Of a DNA stretch of 20,509 nt, positions 5,485-19,564 are shown in pieces. Each line of letters begins with the position of its first letter. The stretch's first letter is position 1. The translations under genes were made by a program, and so were the position numbers. The DNA is from a virus (lineage: Duplodnaviria; Heunggongvirae; Uroviricota; Caudoviricetes): positions 1 through 20,509 of the IMG/VR virus record IMGVR_UViG_3300045963_000248, one strand, 5' to 3'. The notes under the pieces are model-generated. The model was not told the origin of the DNA. It was given only the letters and a program-made list of their open reading frames with translations, and ran no database searches.

Positions 5485-5519
5485 GGTTGACTCCCTTTGT
5501 CGGTTATACTAATATATAA

Positions 5520-5535
5520 AGCAGGAACCGTGCCA
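5520..5535 (-). promoter_or_regulatory. sigma54 (RpoN) -24/-12 promoter
   Basis: TGGCACGGTTCCTGCT, GG-N10-GC spacing, about 36 nt upstream of ATG 5484. Confidence 0.7.
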
Positions 5536-5909
5536 ACTGGAAAGCTATGATATTATTGAATAAACTAATATTGTTGTGACTAAACTATATACGAAAAGCG
5601 TAATTTCCTAGTAATTACGCGCTGTCAGGAAAATATACACTGTCAACGATTAGTACAGGATAACATATTGAAAGATGGTAATATCATTGATTACAATGAC
5701 TTAACTTGAGTGACATCCTTATATGCATGTTAAAAATTGATTTAAAGTAAAAGGGTAAAAAACAATGTCATTCCTCACTTACTTAATTCAGCCGTCAACC
5801 ATTATATTATCAGTGCCAAAATGCCACCACCTTTAAGACTTACGTAAAAGTTACGCATTGAAAACTTCTATACCCGATAACTACTATTATCGGTAATAAC
5901 AATTACATA

Positions 5910-5982
5910 TGCAATTAGCATGCCTTTGCAATAATCATGCCACATTACTTGGCACACAACTTGCAATGCAAGAGCCATGCCT
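5910..5982. promoter_or_regulatory. cluster of four sigma54-type -24/-12 motifs
   Basis: Minus: AGGCATGCTAATTGCA (5910-5925), TGGCATGATTATTGCA (5927-5942), AGGCATGGCTCTTGCA (5967-5982). Plus: TGGCACACAACTTGCA (5950-5965). All GG-N10-GC. Confidence 0.7.
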
Positions 5983-6576
5983 TAAGGTTATCTTAAGGTT
6001 AGCACTCTAAGGGGGGGTAGGTGACTTCGTCGCCGTCAAATAAACTTACACTCTCTATATACCTACTAGGAACTACCTAAGTTGTGCAAGCTCAAACAGC
6101 TATTCCTATGTATCTGATAGTACGTACTCGTATGACACTATAGCATTATGTTGCTAGGAGCCATAGGAAGCCTTTGGAGAGGCTCCGGGGATACTGGAGG
6201 GTAGTTATTCATGAAGGTTCGCAGCAGACAATACAATAGCTATGGGGTGAAGACCTCATTTGGAATTGTATCGATATCATTCCCGGGTTTGTTGTGCCGT
6301 TTCAGATACCAAGTGCTACCATAAGCTTGTTTCAGGATTCCCGAAGGCTTGTTTGAGGTAGTATAGTGTTCAGGTTGTGCATGCTGAACGAAGTAGTGGC
6401 TTGGGTAACGCTCAGATCTTAATCTTCGATGCTGAGTGGTATGTGCATTGCTGCTCGCGGGATGCCGCCGCTTGGCTACCTGTCCCTAATCAATATCTCT
6501 TACCTTAAGTTAGCCGCTAAGCGGGGATATTTGGTCTTTCCTTAATAACGTCCCAAGACGCTCTCTACCTTAAGTT
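5980..6576. other. non-coding, repeat/palindrome-rich region; candidate genome terminus/packaging region
   Basis: No credible ORF; CTTAAG copies near 5981, 5992, 6504 and 6569; G7 at 6011-6017; several palindromes. Confidence 0.4.
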
Positions 6577-6788
6577 GTTAAAAAAGCCTCAGTTGTATGT
6601 ATTAAATTATAGTTAGCTTTCACTAAAGAGAAAAGTTCTTTATCGAAAAGTTCTTTATCAAATAACATTGAATTCCAATTAGTACCTACATATTTGTAAA
6701 AGTACATATTTTTTCGCTTGGAAGGAGCTATGAATACAGTATTCTCGGGATAAATTTCCCCGTTCTCGTCGAAGTAACCAAGTCTCAT
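6570..6788 (-). CDS. N-terminal motif family protein (MRLGYFDENGEI)
   Basis: 72 aa, GGGGG RBS, shared N-terminal motif. Confidence 0.8.
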   Translation of the reverse strand: MRLGYFDENGEIYPENTVFIAPSKRKNMYFYKYVGTNWNSMLFDKELFDKELFSLVKANYNLIHTTEAFLTT

Positions 6789-6993
6789 CTTTATCCCCCG
6801 GGTCGTATACTACCATCCCTCCTGGCAAGTTCATTATAGCATGGGCGCTTTGGATTCCTAATGGAGGAGTATACATTTGCTGAGTCATAGCCCTCCCATA
6901 AGCTCTAGACAAAGCGTCCACCTGCTCCCGGAATGCCCTTAGCGGGTATCCTTTTTCTATTTCCCCATCCTCTGTGAAGTACTCAAGTTTCAT
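6679..6993 (-). CDS. N-terminal motif family protein (MKLEYFTEDGEI); 3' end uncertain
   Basis: AAGGA RBS, motif; 110-nt overlap with 6570..6788 depends on the C5 run at 6795-6799. Confidence 0.75.
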   Translation of the reverse strand: MKLEYFTEDGEIEKGYPLRAFREQVDALSRAYGRAMTQQMYTPPLGIQSAHAIMNLPGGMVVYDPGDKDETWLLRRERGNLSREYCIHSSFQAKKYVLLQICRY

Positions 6994-7156
6994 TTTTGTC
7001 CTTTAGTATTGTTTTTGGAGTTATTAGAGGATTATTAAAGTAAACTCCTGCTTGTATAGCTATCAGTTGATCTATCGTAGCTGAGAATACATTTAAACGT
7101 TTCTCAGTATACTCTTGATCTATTGATCCGTCATCTTTAATGTAAACTAATTTCAT
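6983..7156 (-). CDS. N-terminal motif family protein, 57 aa (MKLVYIKDDGSIDQEYTEKRLNVFSATIDQLIAIQAGVYFNNPLITPKTILKDKNET)
   Basis: Manual translation, absent from ORF track; ATGA overlap with 7153..7416. Confidence 0.8.
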   Translation of the reverse strand: MKLVYIKDDGSIDQEYTEKRLNVFSATIDQLIAIQAGVYFNNPLITPKTILKDKNET

Positions 7157-7416
7157 TTTTGCCCCCGGAACAGCGGCTTCCCGCGAAACTGTTTAGGTAA
7201 GGTAGATTCTTTTTTAGGCTTAGGTGCTTCAGGGGCGGGGGAATCCGGTACGCTCTCGATTCCAAATGTTACTATTTTTTGATATTGAGACGCAGATACT
7301 ACAATAGTATTAGCTTTTTCATGAGGTACTGTATACCTATCTCCCCACTCGATCCAAAACCAACCCTTCCATGTTGGATCGATCTCACCATTGTCTTGAA
7401 AGTAATCTAACTTCAT
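7153..7416 (-). CDS. N-terminal motif family protein (MKLDYFQDNGEI) with Pro/Lys-rich tail
   Basis: 87 aa, GGGAG RBS, motif. Confidence 0.8.
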   Translation of the reverse strand: MKLDYFQDNGEIDPTWKGWFWIEWGDRYTVPHEKANTIVVSASQYQKIVTFGIESVPDSPAPEAPKPKKESTLPKQFRGKPLFRGQK

Positions 7417-7490
7417 AACTCTCCCAGCAGCAGGATGCTGCGTTACAATAGGCTAGCGACAGCGGAGGACTGCCTCGCGCCTGACGATTC

Positions 7491-7811
7491 TTAGAAGAAG
7501 TCTGCGCCTTCTTCAGAATCTAGTTGCTCGTTAATGTCGGTCAGCTTCACTGACCTACCTGAAGACAGTATTATGTTATTGTCTGAGATACTAGATACTG
7601 CATCGTTATCAATGCTAAGTGCTTTAGAAAAATTTTTCTTGAACACTTTATATTTTAGTGGGAGGTAGGTATCATATTGTGTAAGCAGCACTACATACCC
7701 GTCTTGAGATACGTAGGATACAATAAAGGACTCTGAGGTAGCTATATTAAATACTACCTTATACTGTCTTACTAAATACTTTACTAAGATTCTTTTAAAG
7801 AGGTTAAACAT
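7491..7811 (-). CDS. hypothetical protein
   Basis: 106 aa, GGAG RBS. Confidence 0.75.
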   Translation of the reverse strand: MFNLFKRILVKYLVRQYKVVFNIATSESFIVSYVSQDGYVVLLTQYDTYLPLKYKVFKKNFSKALSIDNDAVSSISDNNIILSSGRSVKLTDINEQLDSEEGADFF

Positions 7812-8035
7812 TTTCCACTCCTATTAATTACTCTGACTTTTCTTTTTTGTGTATTAGGTAATTCCCACCATTCTATGAACTGGGTTACAGGCATGTAAGT
7901 TATTCCCGAATCCGGCTGCCATAAAACAATATAAAAACCTCTATATGCTATAAATGACCCTTCAATACTTTTAATTACTACACAGTCGTCAGTAAATATT
8001 TTTCCCGTATCGTGATCAAAGAAATCTAATTGCAT
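7784..8035 (-). CDS. N-terminal motif family protein (MQLDFFDHDTGKI)
   Basis: GAGG RBS, ATG at 8035, motif with 1-aa insertion. Confidence 0.8.
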   Translation of the reverse strand: MQLDFFDHDTGKIFTDDCVVIKSIEGSFIAYRGFYIVLWQPDSGITYMPVTQFIEWWELPNTQKRKVRVINRSGKCLTSLKES

Positions 8036-8044
8036 AATCACCTC

Positions 8045-8079
8045 TTGACAACCTTACCACACTCTGGTATACTTGTCAA
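8045..8079. promoter_or_regulatory. overlapping divergent sigma70 promoters
   Basis: Plus: TTGACA(8045-8050)-N17-TATACT(8068-8073). Minus: TTGACA(8079-8074)-N17-TAAGGT(8056-8051), weaker -10. Confidence 0.7.
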
Positions 8080-8080
8080 C

Positions 8081-8287
8081 ATGGTTTTAGATTATTTTAA
8101 TGACTCCGGCGAAATTGTAAATAGTTTGATAATAGTTAAATCTCCTCTGAAGAACGGTTTACATCAAGTAAGAGTGTTTACAACAATGTCGTCGAGTCCC
8201 GCAGGACTTAGGTATTTTACTAAGGCTGACTTATCTTACTTTTCAAAACGAGGTTACACTATATTATATAGGATATTAAATGATTGA
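8081..8287 (+). CDS. N-terminal motif family protein (MVLDYFNDSGEI), probably leaderless
   Basis: Start re-assigned to ATG 8081; motif; ATG 7 nt after the -10 box. Confidence 0.75.
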   Translation: MVLDYFNDSGEIVNSLIIVKSPLKNGLHQVRVFTTMSSSPAGLRYFTKADLSYFSKRGYTILYRILND

Positions 8288-8573
8288 TAAACAATTCTGC
8301 ATTCACTGTACTGTAAAAAAAGATAAAATCTTTACCCGATACGTAGGTACTAAAAGAATCTACGCTGATGCTTCCGGTGCCGAGTGGTCAGGTTCCCGCT
8401 GTCCAGAATGCTATAAGAAATACAAATTGGAGTACGATGCAAAGCGTCGAAAAAAACTAGGTCATGATGCCATAGGTACTATTAGAATTTGCGAGGAATG
8501 CTCAGCTCAATTTAAAATTGTAAATGGCTCCACAAAATTGTGTTCAAACTGTCGCGGGAATTACAAGGATTAA
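8280..8573 (+). CDS. double zinc-ribbon protein
   Basis: CIHC, CPEC, CEEC and CSNC; basic linker; AGGA RBS, coupled to 8081..8287. Confidence 0.8.
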   Translation: MIDKQFCIHCTVKKDKIFTRYVGTKRIYADASGAEWSGSRCPECYKKYKLEYDAKRRKKLGHDAIGTIRICEECSAQFKIVNGSTKLCSNCRGNYKD

Positions 8574-8828
8574 TTTACCTTTATAGTAAATTTCTGAGAC
8601 AACTATAAATCTAAAAAAACTTGACATCTGCAATATATTTAAATATTCAGTTACAAAATTGTCAGCAGTATCCGAAAACATATCATGTCTTTTTTCTAAG
8701 TTAATTAAAGTAGAAGTTTCCCGAAGCAATCCTATTTTGAAATAGTGCGTATCGTTAGCGTCTTGATAAATTTTAATGTGGTACTTAGCTTTTTTAATAT
8801 CTCCATCGTCATCAAAAATAGTTAGCAT
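8544..8828 (-). CDS. N-terminal motif family protein (MLTIFDDDGDI)
   Basis: 94 aa; FDxDG motif. Confidence 0.75.
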   Translation of the reverse strand: MLTIFDDDGDIKKAKYHIKIYQDANDTHYFKIGLLRETSTLINLEKRHDMFSDTADNFVTEYLNILQMSSFFRFIVVSEIYYKGKLILVIPATV

Positions 8829-9148
8829 TTCATCGCCGTATTTATATAAAAATTTTTGTTTATATTTCTTTTTACCGCTGTGAGAATAAGACTGTCACAT
8901 TTTGCTACTAAAACTGCGTCTCCATTTTGAAGGTATATTAAATCTATTACAGTAAATACTTTTGAGATAATTCTACTGGCTGCAATTTGATTTCCTACCT
9001 TACGATTAGGGGGGTCTTTTGGATGTTTTACTGTGCAGCCAATAGTTAACTCAAAATCTTTTCCGATTTCAAAATTAATTTTACCGTCTAAATCGTCTAC
9101 GTCGTATGCTAAAGTAATTTCGTCTTCGTGAAAGTAAGCTATTTTCAT
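8822..9148 (-). CDS. phage hypothetical protein (weak motif MKIAYFHEDEI; GCTVKHPKD...KVGxxIA pattern)
   Basis: 108 aa, ATGA coupling. Confidence 0.75.
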   Translation of the reverse strand: MKIAYFHEDEITLAYDVDDLDGKINFEIGKDFELTIGCTVKHPKDPPNRKVGNQIAASRIISKVFTVIDLIYLQNGDAVLVAKCDSLILTAVKRNINKNFYINTAMKC

Positions 9149-9390
9149 ATTATAATATCCGCCAAATAATAAGTGTTATACATGCCATTTCCCCGCATTA
9201 AACCTTCCAAATCTTCTCTAATATTTTTTGTAGGTCGTACATTAAAAATTGCAAGCCTGTGCTCGAAAACATCTTCCCATTTTGTAGTCTTTTCTAAATC
9301 CCAAACGTACAGTAAAAATTCAGAACCGTGAGTTCGGTAAGCCCTAATGGCAATTTTAAATTCCCCATCAGGATTAAATATACTTAACAC
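9145..9390 (-). CDS. N-terminal motif family protein (MLSIFNPDGEF)
   Basis: 81 aa, GTG start coupled to the upstream stop; motif. Confidence 0.75.
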   Translation of the reverse strand: MLSIFNPDGEFKIAIRAYRTHGSEFLLYVWDLEKTTKWEDVFEHRLAIFNVRPTKNIREDLEGLMRGNGMYNTYYLADIII

Positions 9391-9575
9391 TATTCTAAAT
9401 CTAACTCTTGTATACTAATTACACTACTTCCGCAGCGGTATACTCCGTTTCCTAGAGAACGTAAATCTTGATTAAATTCTTGAAAAAGTCTCTTCTCGCA
9501 CTTTTCCCGAGTATCTGCTGCGATTACTGCTCGCGCTCCTACCATATCTTCTTCTATTACAATATACACTTTCAT
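9390..9575 (-). CDS. hypothetical protein (start re-assigned to MKVYIV, 61 aa)
   Basis: AGGAG RBS before ATG 9575. Confidence 0.75.
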   Translation of the reverse strand: MKVYIVIEEDMVGARAVIAADTREKCEKRLFQEFNQDLRSLGNGVYRCGSSVISIQELDLE

Positions 9576-9586
9576 TTTTACTCCTA

Positions 9587-9877
9587 CTAATCTGCTTCTA
9601 TATTTCTTTCTTCTGAACTTAAAATATCTGTGTCCCAAAATACTGTAATATGCTCTTCTGCTGGCATACTGCGAAAAGTTACAGTTTCTAAATAAAATCC
9701 GTTTGCGCGTAATTTACTTTTTAATTTTACCGCTGCTTTGCTTGGGTAAAAAAAAGATAAACTTCCGTTGCCGACCCCGGCTGCAATTGTAATTGCTAAA
9801 TCCACATCTGAAAATTTTGATAATCTGTCAGAGTGGGAGTTTTCCATTATCGCTAAGGCATGGTTTTTGGTAATCAT
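9587..9877 (-). CDS. hypothetical protein
   Basis: 96 aa, GGAGG RBS, ATGA coupling. Confidence 0.8.
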   Translation of the reverse strand: MITKNHALAIMENSHSDRLSKFSDVDLAITIAAGVGNGSLSFFYPSKAAVKLKSKLRANGFYLETVTFRSMPAEEHITVFWDTDILSSEERNIEAD

Positions 9878-10164
9878 CGTTTTGCCTCCAATAATTGCAA
9901 TGTGAGATTGTAACAGTGATTACAAATTAAGTCAACAGAAATCTGAGATTTTTTACATTTTGTACATTTACTGAATCTTGGTTTAATAGGTACTGCTAAG
10001 CCTAATTCCTGCATTCTCAGTATATCCTGATCGTCTGCCCAAGATCTGAGAGCATTATATTTTTTGAGCATTGCTCGACGAAATGGCGTGTCTGTAGCAT
10101 CTTCTTTTAGGAGCACTTCAATTTGCAACATAGTAATAATATCTTCGTCACTTAGTATACTCAT
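9874..10164 (-). CDS. hypothetical protein with C-terminal zinc ribbon (CTKC...CNHC)
   Basis: Two CxxC pairs. Confidence 0.75.
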   Translation of the reverse strand: MSILSDEDIITMLQIEVLLKEDATDTPFRRAMLKKYNALRSWADDQDILRMQELGLAVPIKPRFSKCTKCKKSQISVDLICNHCYNLTLQLLEAKR

Positions 10165-10387
10165 CTAGCTCCACTTCATCCCAGTTTATATTTCTGTACT
10201 CAGGTATAAGTTTAAAGTAATCTATAGCTTCCTGTAAAGTTATAGCTTCGGCGCAAGCTACGAGATGGTCCATAACATATAAATCATAAAAGTAAACATC
10301 TCTAATAATAGGACCTATATCCTGAACTATTGCAATTTTTACCGGAATTTTATAGTTACCTTCCGAATCGAAGCAGGGCATCCTCAT
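10148..10387 (-). CDS. N-terminal motif family protein, divergent (MRMPCFDSEGNY)
   Basis: 79 aa; FDxxG motif. Confidence 0.7.
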   Translation of the reverse strand: MRMPCFDSEGNYKIPVKIAIVQDIGPIIRDVYFYDLYVMDHLVACAEAITLQEAIDYFKLIPEYRNINWDEVELDEYTK

Positions 10388-10602
10388 ATTAACTTTAACC
10401 TATTTTCAATTTTTTGCAAGAAAAATCCGCAACAAAAGAAATTAAAATAATACGTGGTAACTAGCCCATTTCCCCGCTGTACAATATTTTTAGTTTTAGC
10501 AAATCGGAATACAGAAAGCAGCTCCCAGCCATTTTTATCTCGTGTAAACGGGGGGAAAACTTGTCCAAATAAAATCCATTTACCAAGTGATATCAACTTC
10601 AA
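10384..10602 (-). CDS. hypothetical protein
   Basis: 72 aa, coupled to both neighbours. Confidence 0.65.
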   Translation of the reverse strand: MKLISLGKWILFGQVFPPFTRDKNGWELLSVFRFAKTKNIVQRGNGLVTTYYFNFFCCGFFLQKIENRLKLI

Positions 10603-10846
10603 TTTTAGTTCCTTTTTTGTATTCTTTGAGTTGTTTTACCGCCATATCTAAACCGGCTACGTAAAAGTCAGCTCCTCTTTTATAATGTAAATACTCCATA
10701 GCTACGAAAGAATGTACTACTTCATTTCCACAAAAAAATCTAAAAATGTATTCATCTGTGTTACTCGATCGATAGCAGTATTCCCTTTTTATTTTATACA
10801 CTAAAGCTTTAAATTCGCCATCTTTATCAAAATAATCAAGCTTCAT
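10580..10846 (-). CDS. N-terminal motif family protein (MKLDYFDKDGEF)
   Basis: 88 aa; near-consensus motif. Confidence 0.8.
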   Translation of the reverse strand: MKLDYFDKDGEFKALVYKIKREYCYRSSNTDEYIFRFFCGNEVVHSFVAMEYLHYKRGADFYVAGLDMAVKQLKEYKKGTKIEVDITW

Positions 10847-15357: not shown

Positions 15358-16470
15358 TTATTTAATTTTTATCGCTTTCCCGAATTCCGGGACAAATCCA
15401 TCGTTATTATAAATTAGAAAGATTACATTTTTTCCACGTTTACAAATTGATGGCTCAAAAAAATAACCATCTGTAAATGCAATTAATAGGTCGCCTTTTT
15501 CTTTGTCAAACATTTCGAAGCAAGGATTAATATTTGTCCCTCCGCCGCCATAACGTTGTAATCTCACTATACTTTTTTTAATAGTTTCCACTTTTGAGAT
15601 TTCAGTATCAAAATGCATCACTTTTACATTTCCAGAATACTCTTTAAATAATCTATTCACTTCTCCAGAAAATTCAGCCAGTAACTCATCATCGATACTT
15701 CCAGATTCGTCGATTGCAATATAAATATTAGGAAGACGGTCGTCGGTACTTCCATCAGCGCTGAACCCAATACGACGATTAGGCTTGTTACGGGTAGAAA
15801 TTTTAGTATTCGTAAGAGTATCTTTAGCATATTTCCTCAACAATGTTTTCCAACTTAAAGTTCCGTCAGAGTAAATATCAATATCTAACATTTTTAGCAT
15901 TTCTAAAGGGATTTCCCCTGCACGTAAGCCTTTTGCAGCTTCTCGAGCAGCGCCTTCTCGTATAGCTTTTTCTAGCTCTGATGACATTTCTCCAGCTTCT
16001 GCAATCTCGTCCAATCCTGAGTGGTCGTCAAAACTATACTGTTTTTCACCTTCAGTTTCCGGCTTTTCGTCTCCGCCTAAAAGATGATAATAATTCTGTG
16101 TAGTGAGGTATTTTGCAAAGTTTTTATCTTCTGCAAATACTCCCCCTTCGGGTAGATTCCTTTTTCCAATATAAGAATTTATAGCCATATCTGCAGCAAT
16201 ATTAGCTCTATTTTTATTTTTAAAATCTTTCATTTTATGGGAAAATAATAAATGAAGAACTTCATGTTTCCAAATTCCTGTTTGAATATTTTCAGGATGG
16301 GATTCCATAAATTTTCTATTGTATACTAAATTAAATTTTCCATCCTTGGAAATGTAAGCTCCAGCCGTGGGAATATTATTATTTTCTTTAATTGTACACA
16401 TACATAAAATCTTACCAAAGAATGGTTCTTGTTTTATTAATTGTATACGTGCTCTTTCTAATTTATCCAT
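15358..16470 (-). CDS. DUF2201-type metallopeptidase + VWA domain protein
   Basis: HEVLH (HExxH), NIAADMAIN, DDH, MIDAS DESGS, GGGT and FTDGY. Confidence 0.9.
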   Translation of the reverse strand: MDKLERARIQLIKQEPFFGKILCMCTIKENNNIPTAGAYISKDGKFNLVYNRKFMESHPENIQTGIWKHEVLHLLFSHKMKDFKNKNRANIAADMAINSYIGKRNLPEGGVFAEDKNFAKYLTTQNYYHLLGGDEKPETEGEKQYSFDDHSGLDEIAEAGEMSSELEKAIREGAAREAAKGLRAGEIPLEMLKMLDIDIYSDGTLSWKTLLRKYAKDTLTNTKISTRNKPNRRIGFSADGSTDDRLPNIYIAIDESGSIDDELLAEFSGEVNRLFKEYSGNVKVMHFDTEISKVETIKKSIVRLQRYGGGGTNINPCFEMFDKEKGDLLIAFTDGYFFEPSICKRGKNVIFLIYNNDGFVPEFGKAIKIK

Positions 16471-16627
16471 AACTTCTCCAAAAAGGATTTAAAGGCTGTG
16501 GAAATACAGAAACCACATTTACTTCCAACGTATTTGAAACACCTACCTATTATCTAGAATTAATTCGACATCAAAACCATCGTAAGCTTAAGGGAATCGA
16601 ACCCTCCACGTCAAATTAACAGGCTCC

Positions 16628-17776
16628 TTAAAATGGTACATCAGATGCTGTAGTTTCCGCTACTGGCGCTAAACCTTCAATTCTAGCTTTTAAAGCTGAA
16701 TATTTACCTTTATACATTGGAATTGTTACAGAAGTAATTGTTAAAGCATGTGCGCTAAAAGTACTGTAGTTTTCATTTACACCTTTCCAAAATTTATAAA
16801 GTAACTCTGCTGGAATAGTTAGCATTACTAAATTAATACTATCAACTTCAGAATCTGTTAATTGTCTATTAGTAGTTTCAAAAAACTTATACAAATTATC
16901 TACAGAAGCTCCTAAAATATCTAATCTAGTATTTTCAGGATTACAAAAACTTTTTAATCTTTCAAAATCTTCAGAACGTTCAGCCATACTCATTAATTCT
17001 TCCGCATCAAAAGATTTTTCAGGTTCTTGGCGGTTTTTTATAAATTGCACACCTAACTCAGTTCCTAAAATTCCAAGGATAACTTCGTCTTCGATAGAAG
17101 CGTCCAATCCTAGATTTAGTATATCCGAAACTCTAGCTAAAGATCGAGAAGAAGGCTTTAGCTTTGCCCGAAATCCTGAATCTTTAAATTCAACATGTCC
17201 AGATCCGGCAAATTTAATTACGTCAGGATGAATTTTATTATTTTGTGCCCAGTTTACAAAGTCATTTTTATCAGCAGATAGGTATACGTGTACTAATCTG
17301 TCTTTTAGAGATTCTGACATTGGAGTGGTATCGTAGTCGTCAGTTTCTGGATTTCCTGCGCAGATAATAATTACATCTTCCGGCATTACTTTACCTTTTA
17401 CACGCCGATCCAAAACTTGCTCAAAAGTAGCATTCATAGTTTCTCTACGTCCCATATTATGTTCGTCAAAAAACAAACATATTTTAGATTCACCGTTATT
17501 TCTTAAGGCAGATTCCACCATATCTAAAAAATAAGTAGGAGCTAAATTTTCAATAGCGGTTGTACCATTTACAGAAGTAGGATAATACATCCCGGCAACG
17601 TCGATACTCTCAACTTGAGAAATTCGAAAATCAATTACTTTATACCCATGCTTAGTAGCAGCTTGTTTTAAAATACTAGATTTACCAACTCCGTGATCTC
17701 CCCAAATAAATGTGGAATGTTTAGATTTTTTTTCAAAAACGCTATTCAAATAGCTTTCTAATTGCTTTGGTGTCAT
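16628..17776 (-). CDS. AAA+ ATPase (MoxR-like partner of the VWA protein)
   Basis: Walker A GDHGVGKS, Walker B LFFDE, AGN, DRL Arg finger. Confidence 0.9.
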   Translation of the reverse strand: MTPKQLESYLNSVFEKKSKHSTFIWGDHGVGKSSILKQAATKHGYKVIDFRISQVESIDVAGMYYPTSVNGTTAIENLAPTYFLDMVESALRNNGESKICLFFDEHNMGRRETMNATFEQVLDRRVKGKVMPEDVIIICAGNPETDDYDTTPMSESLKDRLVHVYLSADKNDFVNWAQNNKIHPDVIKFAGSGHVEFKDSGFRAKLKPSSRSLARVSDILNLGLDASIEDEVILGILGTELGVQFIKNRQEPEKSFDAEELMSMAERSEDFERLKSFCNPENTRLDILGASVDNLYKFFETTNRQLTDSEVDSINLVMLTIPAELLYKFWKGVNENYSTFSAHALTITSVTIPMYKGKYSALKARIEGLAPVAETTASDVPF

Positions 17777-18613: not shown

Positions 18614-19564
18614 CTAGTACTCGTCTTCAACCATTAATCCTACTTTTTTAGGACTAGCAAAATCTTTTTTTAATAATTCTTCTCTAGATTTCAGTATTTT
18701 TACAGCTTCTGCTAAAGATTTTTGCTCTTTTAAGCTAGAAATACAGATTTCTCGAAGATTTGCAAGAGATTGATTTTTCATTAATACAATTTCCTCCGGC
18801 AAAGCGTCTCTTTTTAGGTAAAACTTTAAGAAATTTTCAATATCAGTATGGGATAGTTTATCAATTTTTATAAATTTATCCACGCGACTCGGACGCAACA
18901 CGTTTCGAGGAATAATTTCAGGGTGATTTGTCGTAATAACAAAAAAAGCATCATTTAGAGAATTGTCGCCATCTAAAAAATTTAACATTGCTGAAATTTT
19001 ATTGTCATTATTTACAGCAGTGGCAAATTCTTCAAAAATAATTAATTTATCCAGTTTTACTGAATTTAATGCTTCTACCATTTCTGAACTTGGTGGAGAT
19101 ACCATAAAAATAACTACCATATTCTTATTTTTAAGCACCATGTCGTGAATCTTTGCTGTTTTGGAATAGCCAGGAGGTCCCCAAAGCAAAATACTGCGAG
19201 AACGACGAATACCTATGTCGGAAAAAAATTTAGTAGAATCCTGAAACCATTTTAACTCAGTATCCATGTCGTTAAATGCTTCGGGAAAACTAGGATAGTT
19301 ACGCTCTGCTATAATTTGGGGAATTAGAGATTCTGGCTTAGAATAGCTGCCGTTAAATAAACGGTAAATCCCCGGGGAAAGCGGCTCTAATTCTGCCGGT
19401 TCCTCAGTGTCTACTCTTACAACGTCAAATCGCACTTCGTAATCTAATTTCTTTTCGGAAGCCTCGTTTAGCATAGCTGCTTTTTCTTCAGCATTACCAG
19501 CTCGCCAAATAGTCTTCTTTTTATTTTTAGAAACTATAAAAGAATCTTCCTGTTTCTGGAACAT
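18614..19564 (-). CDS. AAA+ ATPase (classical AAA-like, variant Walker A)
   Basis: GPPGYSKT, IIFEE, LNFLDG, ITTNHPE and LRPSRVD (SRH-like). Confidence 0.85.
   Translation of the reverse strand: MFQKQEDSFIVSKNKKKTIWRAGNAEEKAAMLNEASEKKLDYEVRFDVVRVDTEEPAELEPLSPGIYRLFNGSYSKPESLIPQIIAERNYPSFPEAFNDMDTELKWFQDSTKFFSDIGIRRSRSILLWGPPGYSKTAKIHDMVLKNKNMVVIFMVSPPSSEMVEALNSVKLDKLIIFEEFATAVNNDNKISAMLNFLDGDNSLNDAFFVITTNHPEIIPRNVLRPSRVDKFIKIDKLSHTDIENFLKFYLKRDALPEEIVLMKNQSLANLREICISSLKEQKSLAEAVKILKSREELLKKDFASPKKVGLMVEDEY

Follow-up and report, generated by a model that had tools for sequence, protein, structure and literature searches.

Small early orphan proteins of phages are the home of host-takeover and anti-defence tools, and they are almost unclassifiable by sequence. 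The stretch of DNA presented above, in the following called the window (20,509 nucleotides, positions 1 to 20,509 of IMG/VR virus record IMGVR_UViG_3300045963_000248), raises the question of why one phage should begin a whole series of small proteins with the same few residues. This window makes up the first 20.5 kb of one 84.5-kb contig (35.6% GC), and the element under study, which we will refer to as the tag, is an N-terminal peptide of 11-12 residues shared by 13 small orphan proteins (57-108 amino acids, aa) of this phage. Its consensus reads M-[KR]-L-D-[YI]-F-D-x-D-G-E-I. The tag marks about one in ten of the phage's genes and would single out a functional class among its small orphans. 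Is it a module that some partner reads, or the best-conserved end of a single protein family?

The tag and its boundary

The occurrence of the tag was studied with a position matrix built from tag residues 3-12, which was run along the 84.5-kb genome in all six frames, and with a hidden Markov model (HMM) built from the 13 N-termini and searched over the same six frames. The HMM finds exactly 13 places, all of them starts of open reading frames (ORFs) and none internal, with nothing else at E<=10. On the matrix the members score 21.7-34 bits, while the best non-member, located inside a 703-aa protein, reaches 12.8 bits. Sites of at least 12 bits number 12 in the real genome against a mean of 0.5 and a maximum of 2 in 40 first-order Markov genomes. 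The shared N-terminal tag, which a first-pass annotation of the window had described, is thus a real feature of these proteins. The eleven N-termini listed in that annotation are all present, and its remark that no enzyme gene of the window carries the tag extends to the enzyme and larger genes of the whole genome, where the HMM recovers the 13 small ORFs only. By contrast, its family size of 10-11 holds for the window and has to be raised to 13 for the phage: 11 of the 13 tagged genes form one array of 4.3 kb at 6570-10846, and the other two lie outside the window, so that tagged genes occur at three separate places and on both strands. When scored with a three-periodic Markov model for which the long genes of the phage served as training set, all 13 tagged ORFs look most coding in their own frame.

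Membership is not equally firm throughout. In a leave-one-out ranking among 91,918 six-frame 10-mers, nine core members (seven in the window and the two outside) rank 8-11, the member starting at 7156 ranks 14, and the member starting at 8035 ranks 12 on the full matrix after deletion of its one-residue insertion. The members starting at 10387 and 9148 fail the leave-one-out matrix and are regarded as weak, which leaves nine robust members in the window. Two sub-forms can be distinguished, a long one of 12 residues (M-[KR]-L-x-Y-F-x-x-[DN]-G-E-I) and a short one of 11 residues (M-L-x-I-F-x-x-D-G-x-I); the short form is found at 9390, 8828, 64639 and 62875, and the sub-forms cluster by position. 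The conserved positions are Leu-3, an aromatic residue or Ile at 5, Phe-6, acidic or amide residues at 7-9, Gly-10 and Ile or Phe at 12, and position 11 is Glu in 8 of the 13 members.

Comparison of identical residues at degenerate codons (333 pairs) revealed that 57% are encoded by different codons, against 50% expected from the codon usage of the genome; synonymous sites within the tag are saturated. Saturated silent sites beside constant residues indicate that selection acts on the peptide and that the tag is not a DNA repeat, as the first-pass annotation had concluded from the codons, and they also indicate that the peptide has been held constant through long divergence. In agreement with this, no shared DNA was found upstream of the starts beyond ordinary purine-rich ribosome-binding sites, and BLASTN detects no DNA similarity among the tagged genes.

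Conservation ends abruptly behind the tag. Mean pairwise identity amounts to 47% over residues 2-12 and to 6% over the following 12. Columns anchored on the tag end show no conservation compared with shuffles (z -0.1 to -1.1), BLASTP of the bodies among the members yields nothing below E=0.03, and by Smith-Waterman z-score the tagged bodies align with each other no better than with untagged small ORFs of the phage (p=0.82). All three analyses lie at background, and the earlier statement that the bodies are dissimilar past about residue 12 therefore stands. The sole relation at the level of bodies connects the protein starting at 9390 with a tag-less remnant at 10384-10602. In the first 36 nucleotides (nt) after the tag, several members display a hydrophobic, strand-like pattern and others have proline or charged residues. 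Bodies derived from each other by frameshift were considered as well and were rejected, as there is no cross-frame similarity between members.

Genomic setting of the tagged genes

The phage is uncultured, and its contig, complete according to CheckV, was sampled in wetland metagenomes. The window is present with identical sequence in two wetland DNA runs, no RNA run is listed with it, and the same phage was found also on one other assembly. By a crude gene call the phage has about 137 genes, and the products of 73 do not exceed 120 aa. The structural genes occupy the plus strand between 21 and 61 kb, and genes on the minus strand (1-21 kb and 61-84 kb) include those for nucleotide metabolism (ribonucleotide reductase, dUTPase and dNMP kinase) and for a T7-like replisome with primase-helicase, family-A polymerase and its exonuclease subunit, exonuclease, and Erf-like annealing protein. 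Among GenBank phages there is no close relative, nor any near-identical or distant match at the DNA or protein level. The coordinates of the tagged genes and of the features discussed with them are compiled in Table 1.

Table 1. Tagged genes, associated sites and candidate partner genes on the phage contig
Feature	Position	Strand	Characteristics
Tagged gene	10580..10846	-	88 aa; MKLDYFDKDGEF; long form, strong; leave-one-out rank 8; coding in own frame
Tagged gene	10148..10387	-	79 aa; MRMPCFDSEGNY; weak, diverged; HMM 34.9 bits; fails leave-one-out matrix
Tagged gene	9145..9390	-	81 aa; GTG start; (M)LSIFNPDGEF; short form
Tagged gene	8822..9148	-	108 aa; MKIAYFHEDEI; weakest member; HMM 16.5 bits, E 0.0013
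Tagged gene	8544..8828	-	94 aa; MLTIFDDDGDI; short form
Tagged gene	8081..8287	+	68 aa; MVLDYFNDSGEI
Sigma-70-type promoter-like site	8045..8073	+	TTGACA-17-TATACT, 11/12 matches, TG extension; consensus match only; 5' of the 8081 gene
Tagged gene	7784..8035	-	83 aa; MQLDFFDHDTGKI; one extra residue in turn
Tagged gene	7153..7416	-	87 aa; MKLDYFQDNGEI; GC 43%
Tagged gene	6983..7156	-	57 aa; MKLVYIKDDGSI; leave-one-out rank 14
Tagged gene	6679..6993	-	104 aa; MKLEYFTEDGEI; GC 48% over 6789-6993
Tagged gene	6570..6788	-	72 aa; MRLGYFDENGEI
Tagged gene outside window	start 64639	-	92 aa; short form; directly after dNMP kinase gene
Tagged gene outside window	start 62875	-	74 aa; short form; between metallopeptidase gene and ClpP-like gene
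Tag-less remnant ORF	10384..10602	-	poorly coding; paralogue of C-terminal half of 9390 protein
Candidate partner: Cdc48/AFG2-like classical-clade AAA+	18614-19564		316 aa; N-domain ~110 aa; nearest solved relatives NSF, AFG2, p97, BCS1
Candidate partner: MoxR-like AAA ATPase and adjoining DUF2201 protein	15358-17776		DUF2201 protein with metallopeptidase-like N-domain and VWA-like domain

Several of the tagged genes show peculiarities of their own. The only tagged gene of the array on the plus strand, at 8081, has its ATG 7 nt past the end of a promoter-like site and lacks a ribosome-binding site, which suggests that its mRNA may be leaderless. Divergent promoter-like sites are found at 8035-8090 between this gene and the tagged gene on the opposite strand. 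Directly downstream, and in the same orientation, 8280-8573 encodes a 97-aa protein with four CxxC pairs of the double zinc-ribbon type. The 6993 gene shares its last 36 codons (6679-6788, 110 nt) with the 6788 gene. A coding signal is seen there in the 6788 frame only, so that the C-terminal 36 residues of the 6993 protein are probably unselected read-on. In the weak 9148 member the motif apparently recurs in degenerate form at residues 13-25. Outside the window, at genome 62651-63393, the ATG of the 62875 gene abuts the stop of the gene for a small membrane-anchored phage metallopeptidase (PF18894), and the product of the ClpP-like gene that follows has a signal-peptide-like N-terminus.

The remnant at 10384-10602 matches the 9390 protein in 13 of 31 residues (E 0.006 against the whole genome, 1e-5 pairwise), which demonstrates that duplication does occur in the array. 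Behind a short ORF with its ATG at about 10576, a run of six C in this remnant may conceal a frameshift. The other end of the array, at the last tagged gene, is bordered by a segment of about 1 kb (5500-6570) devoid of credible ORFs and higher in GC than its flanks (40%, and 46% over 5990-6569, against 35.6% for the genome). It contains no tRNA, Rfam yields no match to it even at E<=1, and its fold energy is ordinary (z-score -0.8).

Atypical composition is also seen within the array, where the GC contents of the 6993 and 7416 genes compare with a gene mean of 34% (standard deviation 3.7) and the GC content at third codon positions of the 6993 gene is 49% against a gene mean of 27%. These values hint that tagged genes or their bodies may have been exchanged with other genomes, with a possible recent acquisition of the 6993 and 7416 genes. 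If these two genes arrived already tagged, other carriers of the tag should exist beyond the current collections.

Relatives and other carriers

Not one of the 13 members has a Pfam or PHROG match. Three members, the 10846 protein among them, were searched against 5.8 billion proteins and retrieved only themselves. The tag HMM, run against 1.84 billion representatives, returned six proteins of the phage itself and two long repeat proteins that were matched internally; this search is weak for a motif of 12 residues, as seven of the training proteins themselves fell below significance at E 1e-3. Pattern searches gave single matches at the level of chance. In IMG/VR the strict pattern has no match, the peptide pattern yields 76 unconfirmed stretches against about 100 expected by hand-computed chance, and a looser DNA pattern yields 17 loci with one match each. 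The looser pattern further hits metagenome contigs at 86 loci and prokaryote genomes at 51, each listed with one match, and a re-scan of the metagenome loci with the matrix found none with a second tag. One recurring match corresponds to the N-terminus of an M15-type peptidase-like protein and was judged unrelated on its sequence alone.

Relatives of the phage were also approached via its conserved genes. The ClpP-like protein, the terminase and the DNA polymerase lead to relatives with 37%, 55% and 52% identity, respectively, which are short or not syntenic. None of these is tagged, and the same search recovers all 13 sites in the phage itself. A search with a 263-aa neighbour gene returned nothing. 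Comparative evidence is the strongest guide to a possible reader and would require a second carrier, and the tag was not found in any other genome.

Two observations on these more distant phages concern similar motifs. In L009, the nearest relative found via the DNA polymerase (52%), three small plus-strand ORFs (at 6872, 12737 and 13185) share a different, MKFKVGDKV-like N-terminal motif, and conserved first hairpins may be a wider habit of small phage proteins. In five other, distant phages, a conserved protein of about 340 aa, encoded roughly 1-1.5 kb downstream of the polymerase match, contains the tag-like internal stretch DG-[VI]-[LM]-x-Y-[VT]-x-[ED]-[DE]-G-[ED]-x-[IL]-RVG. Its internal position indicates that the motif is a generic hairpin-type sequence for which a free N-terminus is not generally needed.

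Possible roles of the tag and comparison with known systems

In sequence, a tight beta-hairpin is usually marked by a D/N-G pair with short alternating strands on either side. AlphaFold models of two members display two short strands around the D-G turn, with predicted local distance difference test (pLDDT) values of 40-47 (47 for the 10387 protein and 41 for the 6993 protein), and two stored ESM Atlas models have pLDDT values of 0.51 and 0.48; a third Atlas entry, consulted for its features, gave no lead. After the hairpin, AlphaFold places a helix in one member and strands in the other, both with low confidence. These models hint that the tag is probably a short amphipathic beta-hairpin around the D/N-G turn. 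The hairpin proposed in the first-pass annotation is accordingly in keeping with the two strands in both AlphaFold models and with the similar motif inside proteins of other phages, although at pLDDT values of only 40-47 it is not secured. A calcium-binding loop of the EF-hand type was considered too and dismissed, as Asp, Gly and Ile are spaced two residues too closely for the EF-hand consensus.

That conservation drops from strong to nil at residue 12 argues for a short linear module rather than for the core of a fold, and the presence of members at three places and on both strands argues that the tag travels with genes and is not the property of one operon. Our preferred reading, which we hold tentatively and would not yet call probable, is that the tag is a handle, presumably in the form of a beta-hairpin, recognised in trans by one common partner. 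The 11-12 N-terminal residues would constitute a separate functional module, and its carriers would be lineage-specific small proteins encoded in the non-structural minus-strand part of the genome, a set that probably expanded through local duplication, after which everything past residue 12 diverged very fast or was replaced. For a module without a common body to pack against, recognition in trans is the simplest explanation; the hairpin, the recognition in trans and the single partner are what we infer from this pattern. Possible, if doubtful, is the more specific proposal that one dedicated receptor, of phage or host origin, binds all 13 N-terminal hairpins and so brings about the delivery, activation or timed removal of these proteins as a class, which, if true, would be an undescribed cargo-addressing system for hypervariable phage effectors. 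Candidate partners in the genome are the two AAA-type loci of Table 1 and the several peptidases and proteases of the phage; a hub protein of the host is equally possible.

A number of points weigh against a handle read in trans. None of the candidate partners is linked to the tag by any result, and the tag was found in one phage only, with neither co-occurrence nor co-variation to point to a reader; its value is limited for now by this single, uncultured source. The clustering of sub-forms (9390 with 8828, 64639 with 62875) and the duplicate remnant fit plain tandem paralogy. A hidden common fold is compatible with the low-confidence models of all members tried, and a structured hairpin could simply use its hydrophobic face to pack against the body of the protein that carries it. 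These points lead directly to the main rival, a cryptic family of paralogues in which tandem duplicates of one small gene retain one fold, with the hairpin as its best-conserved nucleus and not as something read separately. The concentration of 11 of the 13 genes in one 4.3-kb array, their similar sizes (57-108 aa), the sub-forms that cluster by position and the duplicate of the 9390 gene, which attests duplication here, all suit such a family, and the small L009 ORFs with their MKFKVGDKV motif indicate that conserved first hairpins are not unusual. Moreover, fast-evolving effector families often retain their fold after sequence similarity has been lost. Yet a fold core does not normally consist of residues 1-12 only, with identity falling from 47% to 6% behind them, neither leftover similarity nor a hydrophobic register is visible in the ten columns after the tag, and the Smith-Waterman z-scores equal background. 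The secondary structure predicted after the tag also differs between the two modelled members, albeit with low confidence. The full-length sequence similarity of a simple paralogous domain family was found neither by BLASTP nor in the anchored columns nor by Smith-Waterman comparison, and we regard the cryptic form of such a family as rather doubtful, though it deserves to be taken seriously.

Other explanations place the function of the tag elsewhere. It may be a signal for turnover or processing, i.e. a degron or pro-peptide at the N-terminus that a protease or unfoldase recognises, which would give its carriers a common lifetime or activation step. Candidates for such a reader are host machines of the ClpXP or ClpAP type, the Cdc48-like AAA+ protein of the phage and the phage peptidases. 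Indeed, the strict position at residues 1-2 suits machines that start at a free terminus, and the phage encodes both an AAA+ protein of the classical clade, whose N-domain comprises about 110 aa, and a MoxR-like ATPase beside a DUF2201 metallopeptidase/VWA protein. The 62875 member is directly flanked by a phage metallopeptidase gene and a ClpP-like gene. We nevertheless consider a turnover signal unlikely, as degrons are usually unstructured and loosely conserved whereas the tag keeps its Gly and the hydrophobic pattern of a folded hairpin, as no conserved cleavage-type residue follows the tag, and as the ClpP-like protein, with its signal-peptide-like N-terminus, may not meet cytoplasmic proteins at all. 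An effect on translation, with initiation or early elongation adjusted through the first 12 codons or through the nascent peptide, would account for the strict position at the start codon and finds an echo in the possibly leaderless 8081 gene. It is very improbable given that codons vary freely while residues are kept, that most members possess an ordinary purine-rich ribosome-binding site and share no upstream sequence, and that no such role is known for the conserved Gly, aromatic and acidic residues.

Finally, the tag could load its carriers into the prohead for injection together with the DNA. This possibility derives from the internal proteins of phage T4, a diverse set of small proteins with nothing in common but a conserved targeting sequence at the N-terminus (PMC3012670). 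The architecture of the tagged proteins matches that of T4 (PMC3012670), and hypervariable bodies would suit an anti-defence cargo. Loading into the capsid is, all the same, decidedly unlikely here: no similarity to the T4 internal-protein families appears in Pfam or PHROGs, no prohead protease is recognisable among the ORFs of the head module, no conserved residue pattern past the tag qualifies as a maturation site, and the genes lie in the non-structural minus-strand block, one of them with a host-type promoter. The first-pass annotation had proposed an address function for the tag (capsid loading, ejection or docking on a partner such as an AAA+ machine). The analyses gave no support for this proposal: no prohead protease is recognisable in the head module, no conserved cleavage-type residue follows the tag, and no other carrier genome was found.

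Literature searches found no relevant described system of this kind, and three known systems are instructive for comparison. Precursors of ribosomally synthesised and post-translationally modified peptides (RiPPs), e.g. the prochlorosins, are encoded by many genes per genome, with one conserved N-terminal part, a hypervariable rest and a single enzyme that acts on them. The tagged genes resemble this leader/core arrangement in their number, their conserved N-terminus and their hypervariable remainder; they differ in that the conserved part comprises only 12 residues and the bodies are of protein size (45-95 aa). No maturase (radical SAM, LanM, YcaO or similar) was recognised among the larger genes scanned in the window and at 60-84 kb.

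Peptides that dock proteins on the replisome include the acidic C-terminal tails of T7 gp2.5 and gp4, the clamp motif QL[SD]LF and the C-terminal tip of SSB. Similar to the tag, these are short acidic-aromatic terminal peptides by which several unlike proteins dock on one hub, and tag residues 2-6 (x-L-D-[YI]-F) are loosely similar to the clamp-binding pentapeptide. However, the tag is N-terminal instead of C-terminal, and its Gly-10 and Ile-12 are without counterpart. Measured against the clamp motif QL[SD]LF, Gln is present in one of the 13 tags and position 4 of the pentapeptide is Tyr or Ile, so that the tag does not conform to it; nor was a clamp gene recognised in the T7-like replisome of the phage.

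The closest described system is the capsid targeting sequence of T4, which the tag resembles in architecture only. In the T-even phages (IPI, IPII, IPIII and Alt), as here, a short N-terminal peptide is attached to diverse, fast-evolving and otherwise unrelated small phage proteins. The present phage differs in that no sequence or family relation exists in Pfam or PHROGs, in that its tagged genes form a tandem array in a non-structural block, and in that neither a prohead protease nor a cleavage motif is recognisable, a ClpP-like gene outside the head module being the only one of its kind. If one partner does read the tag, it would be the second natural portable address peptide after the capsid targeting sequence of T4, and an address peptide of this type might then be used to direct foreign proteins.

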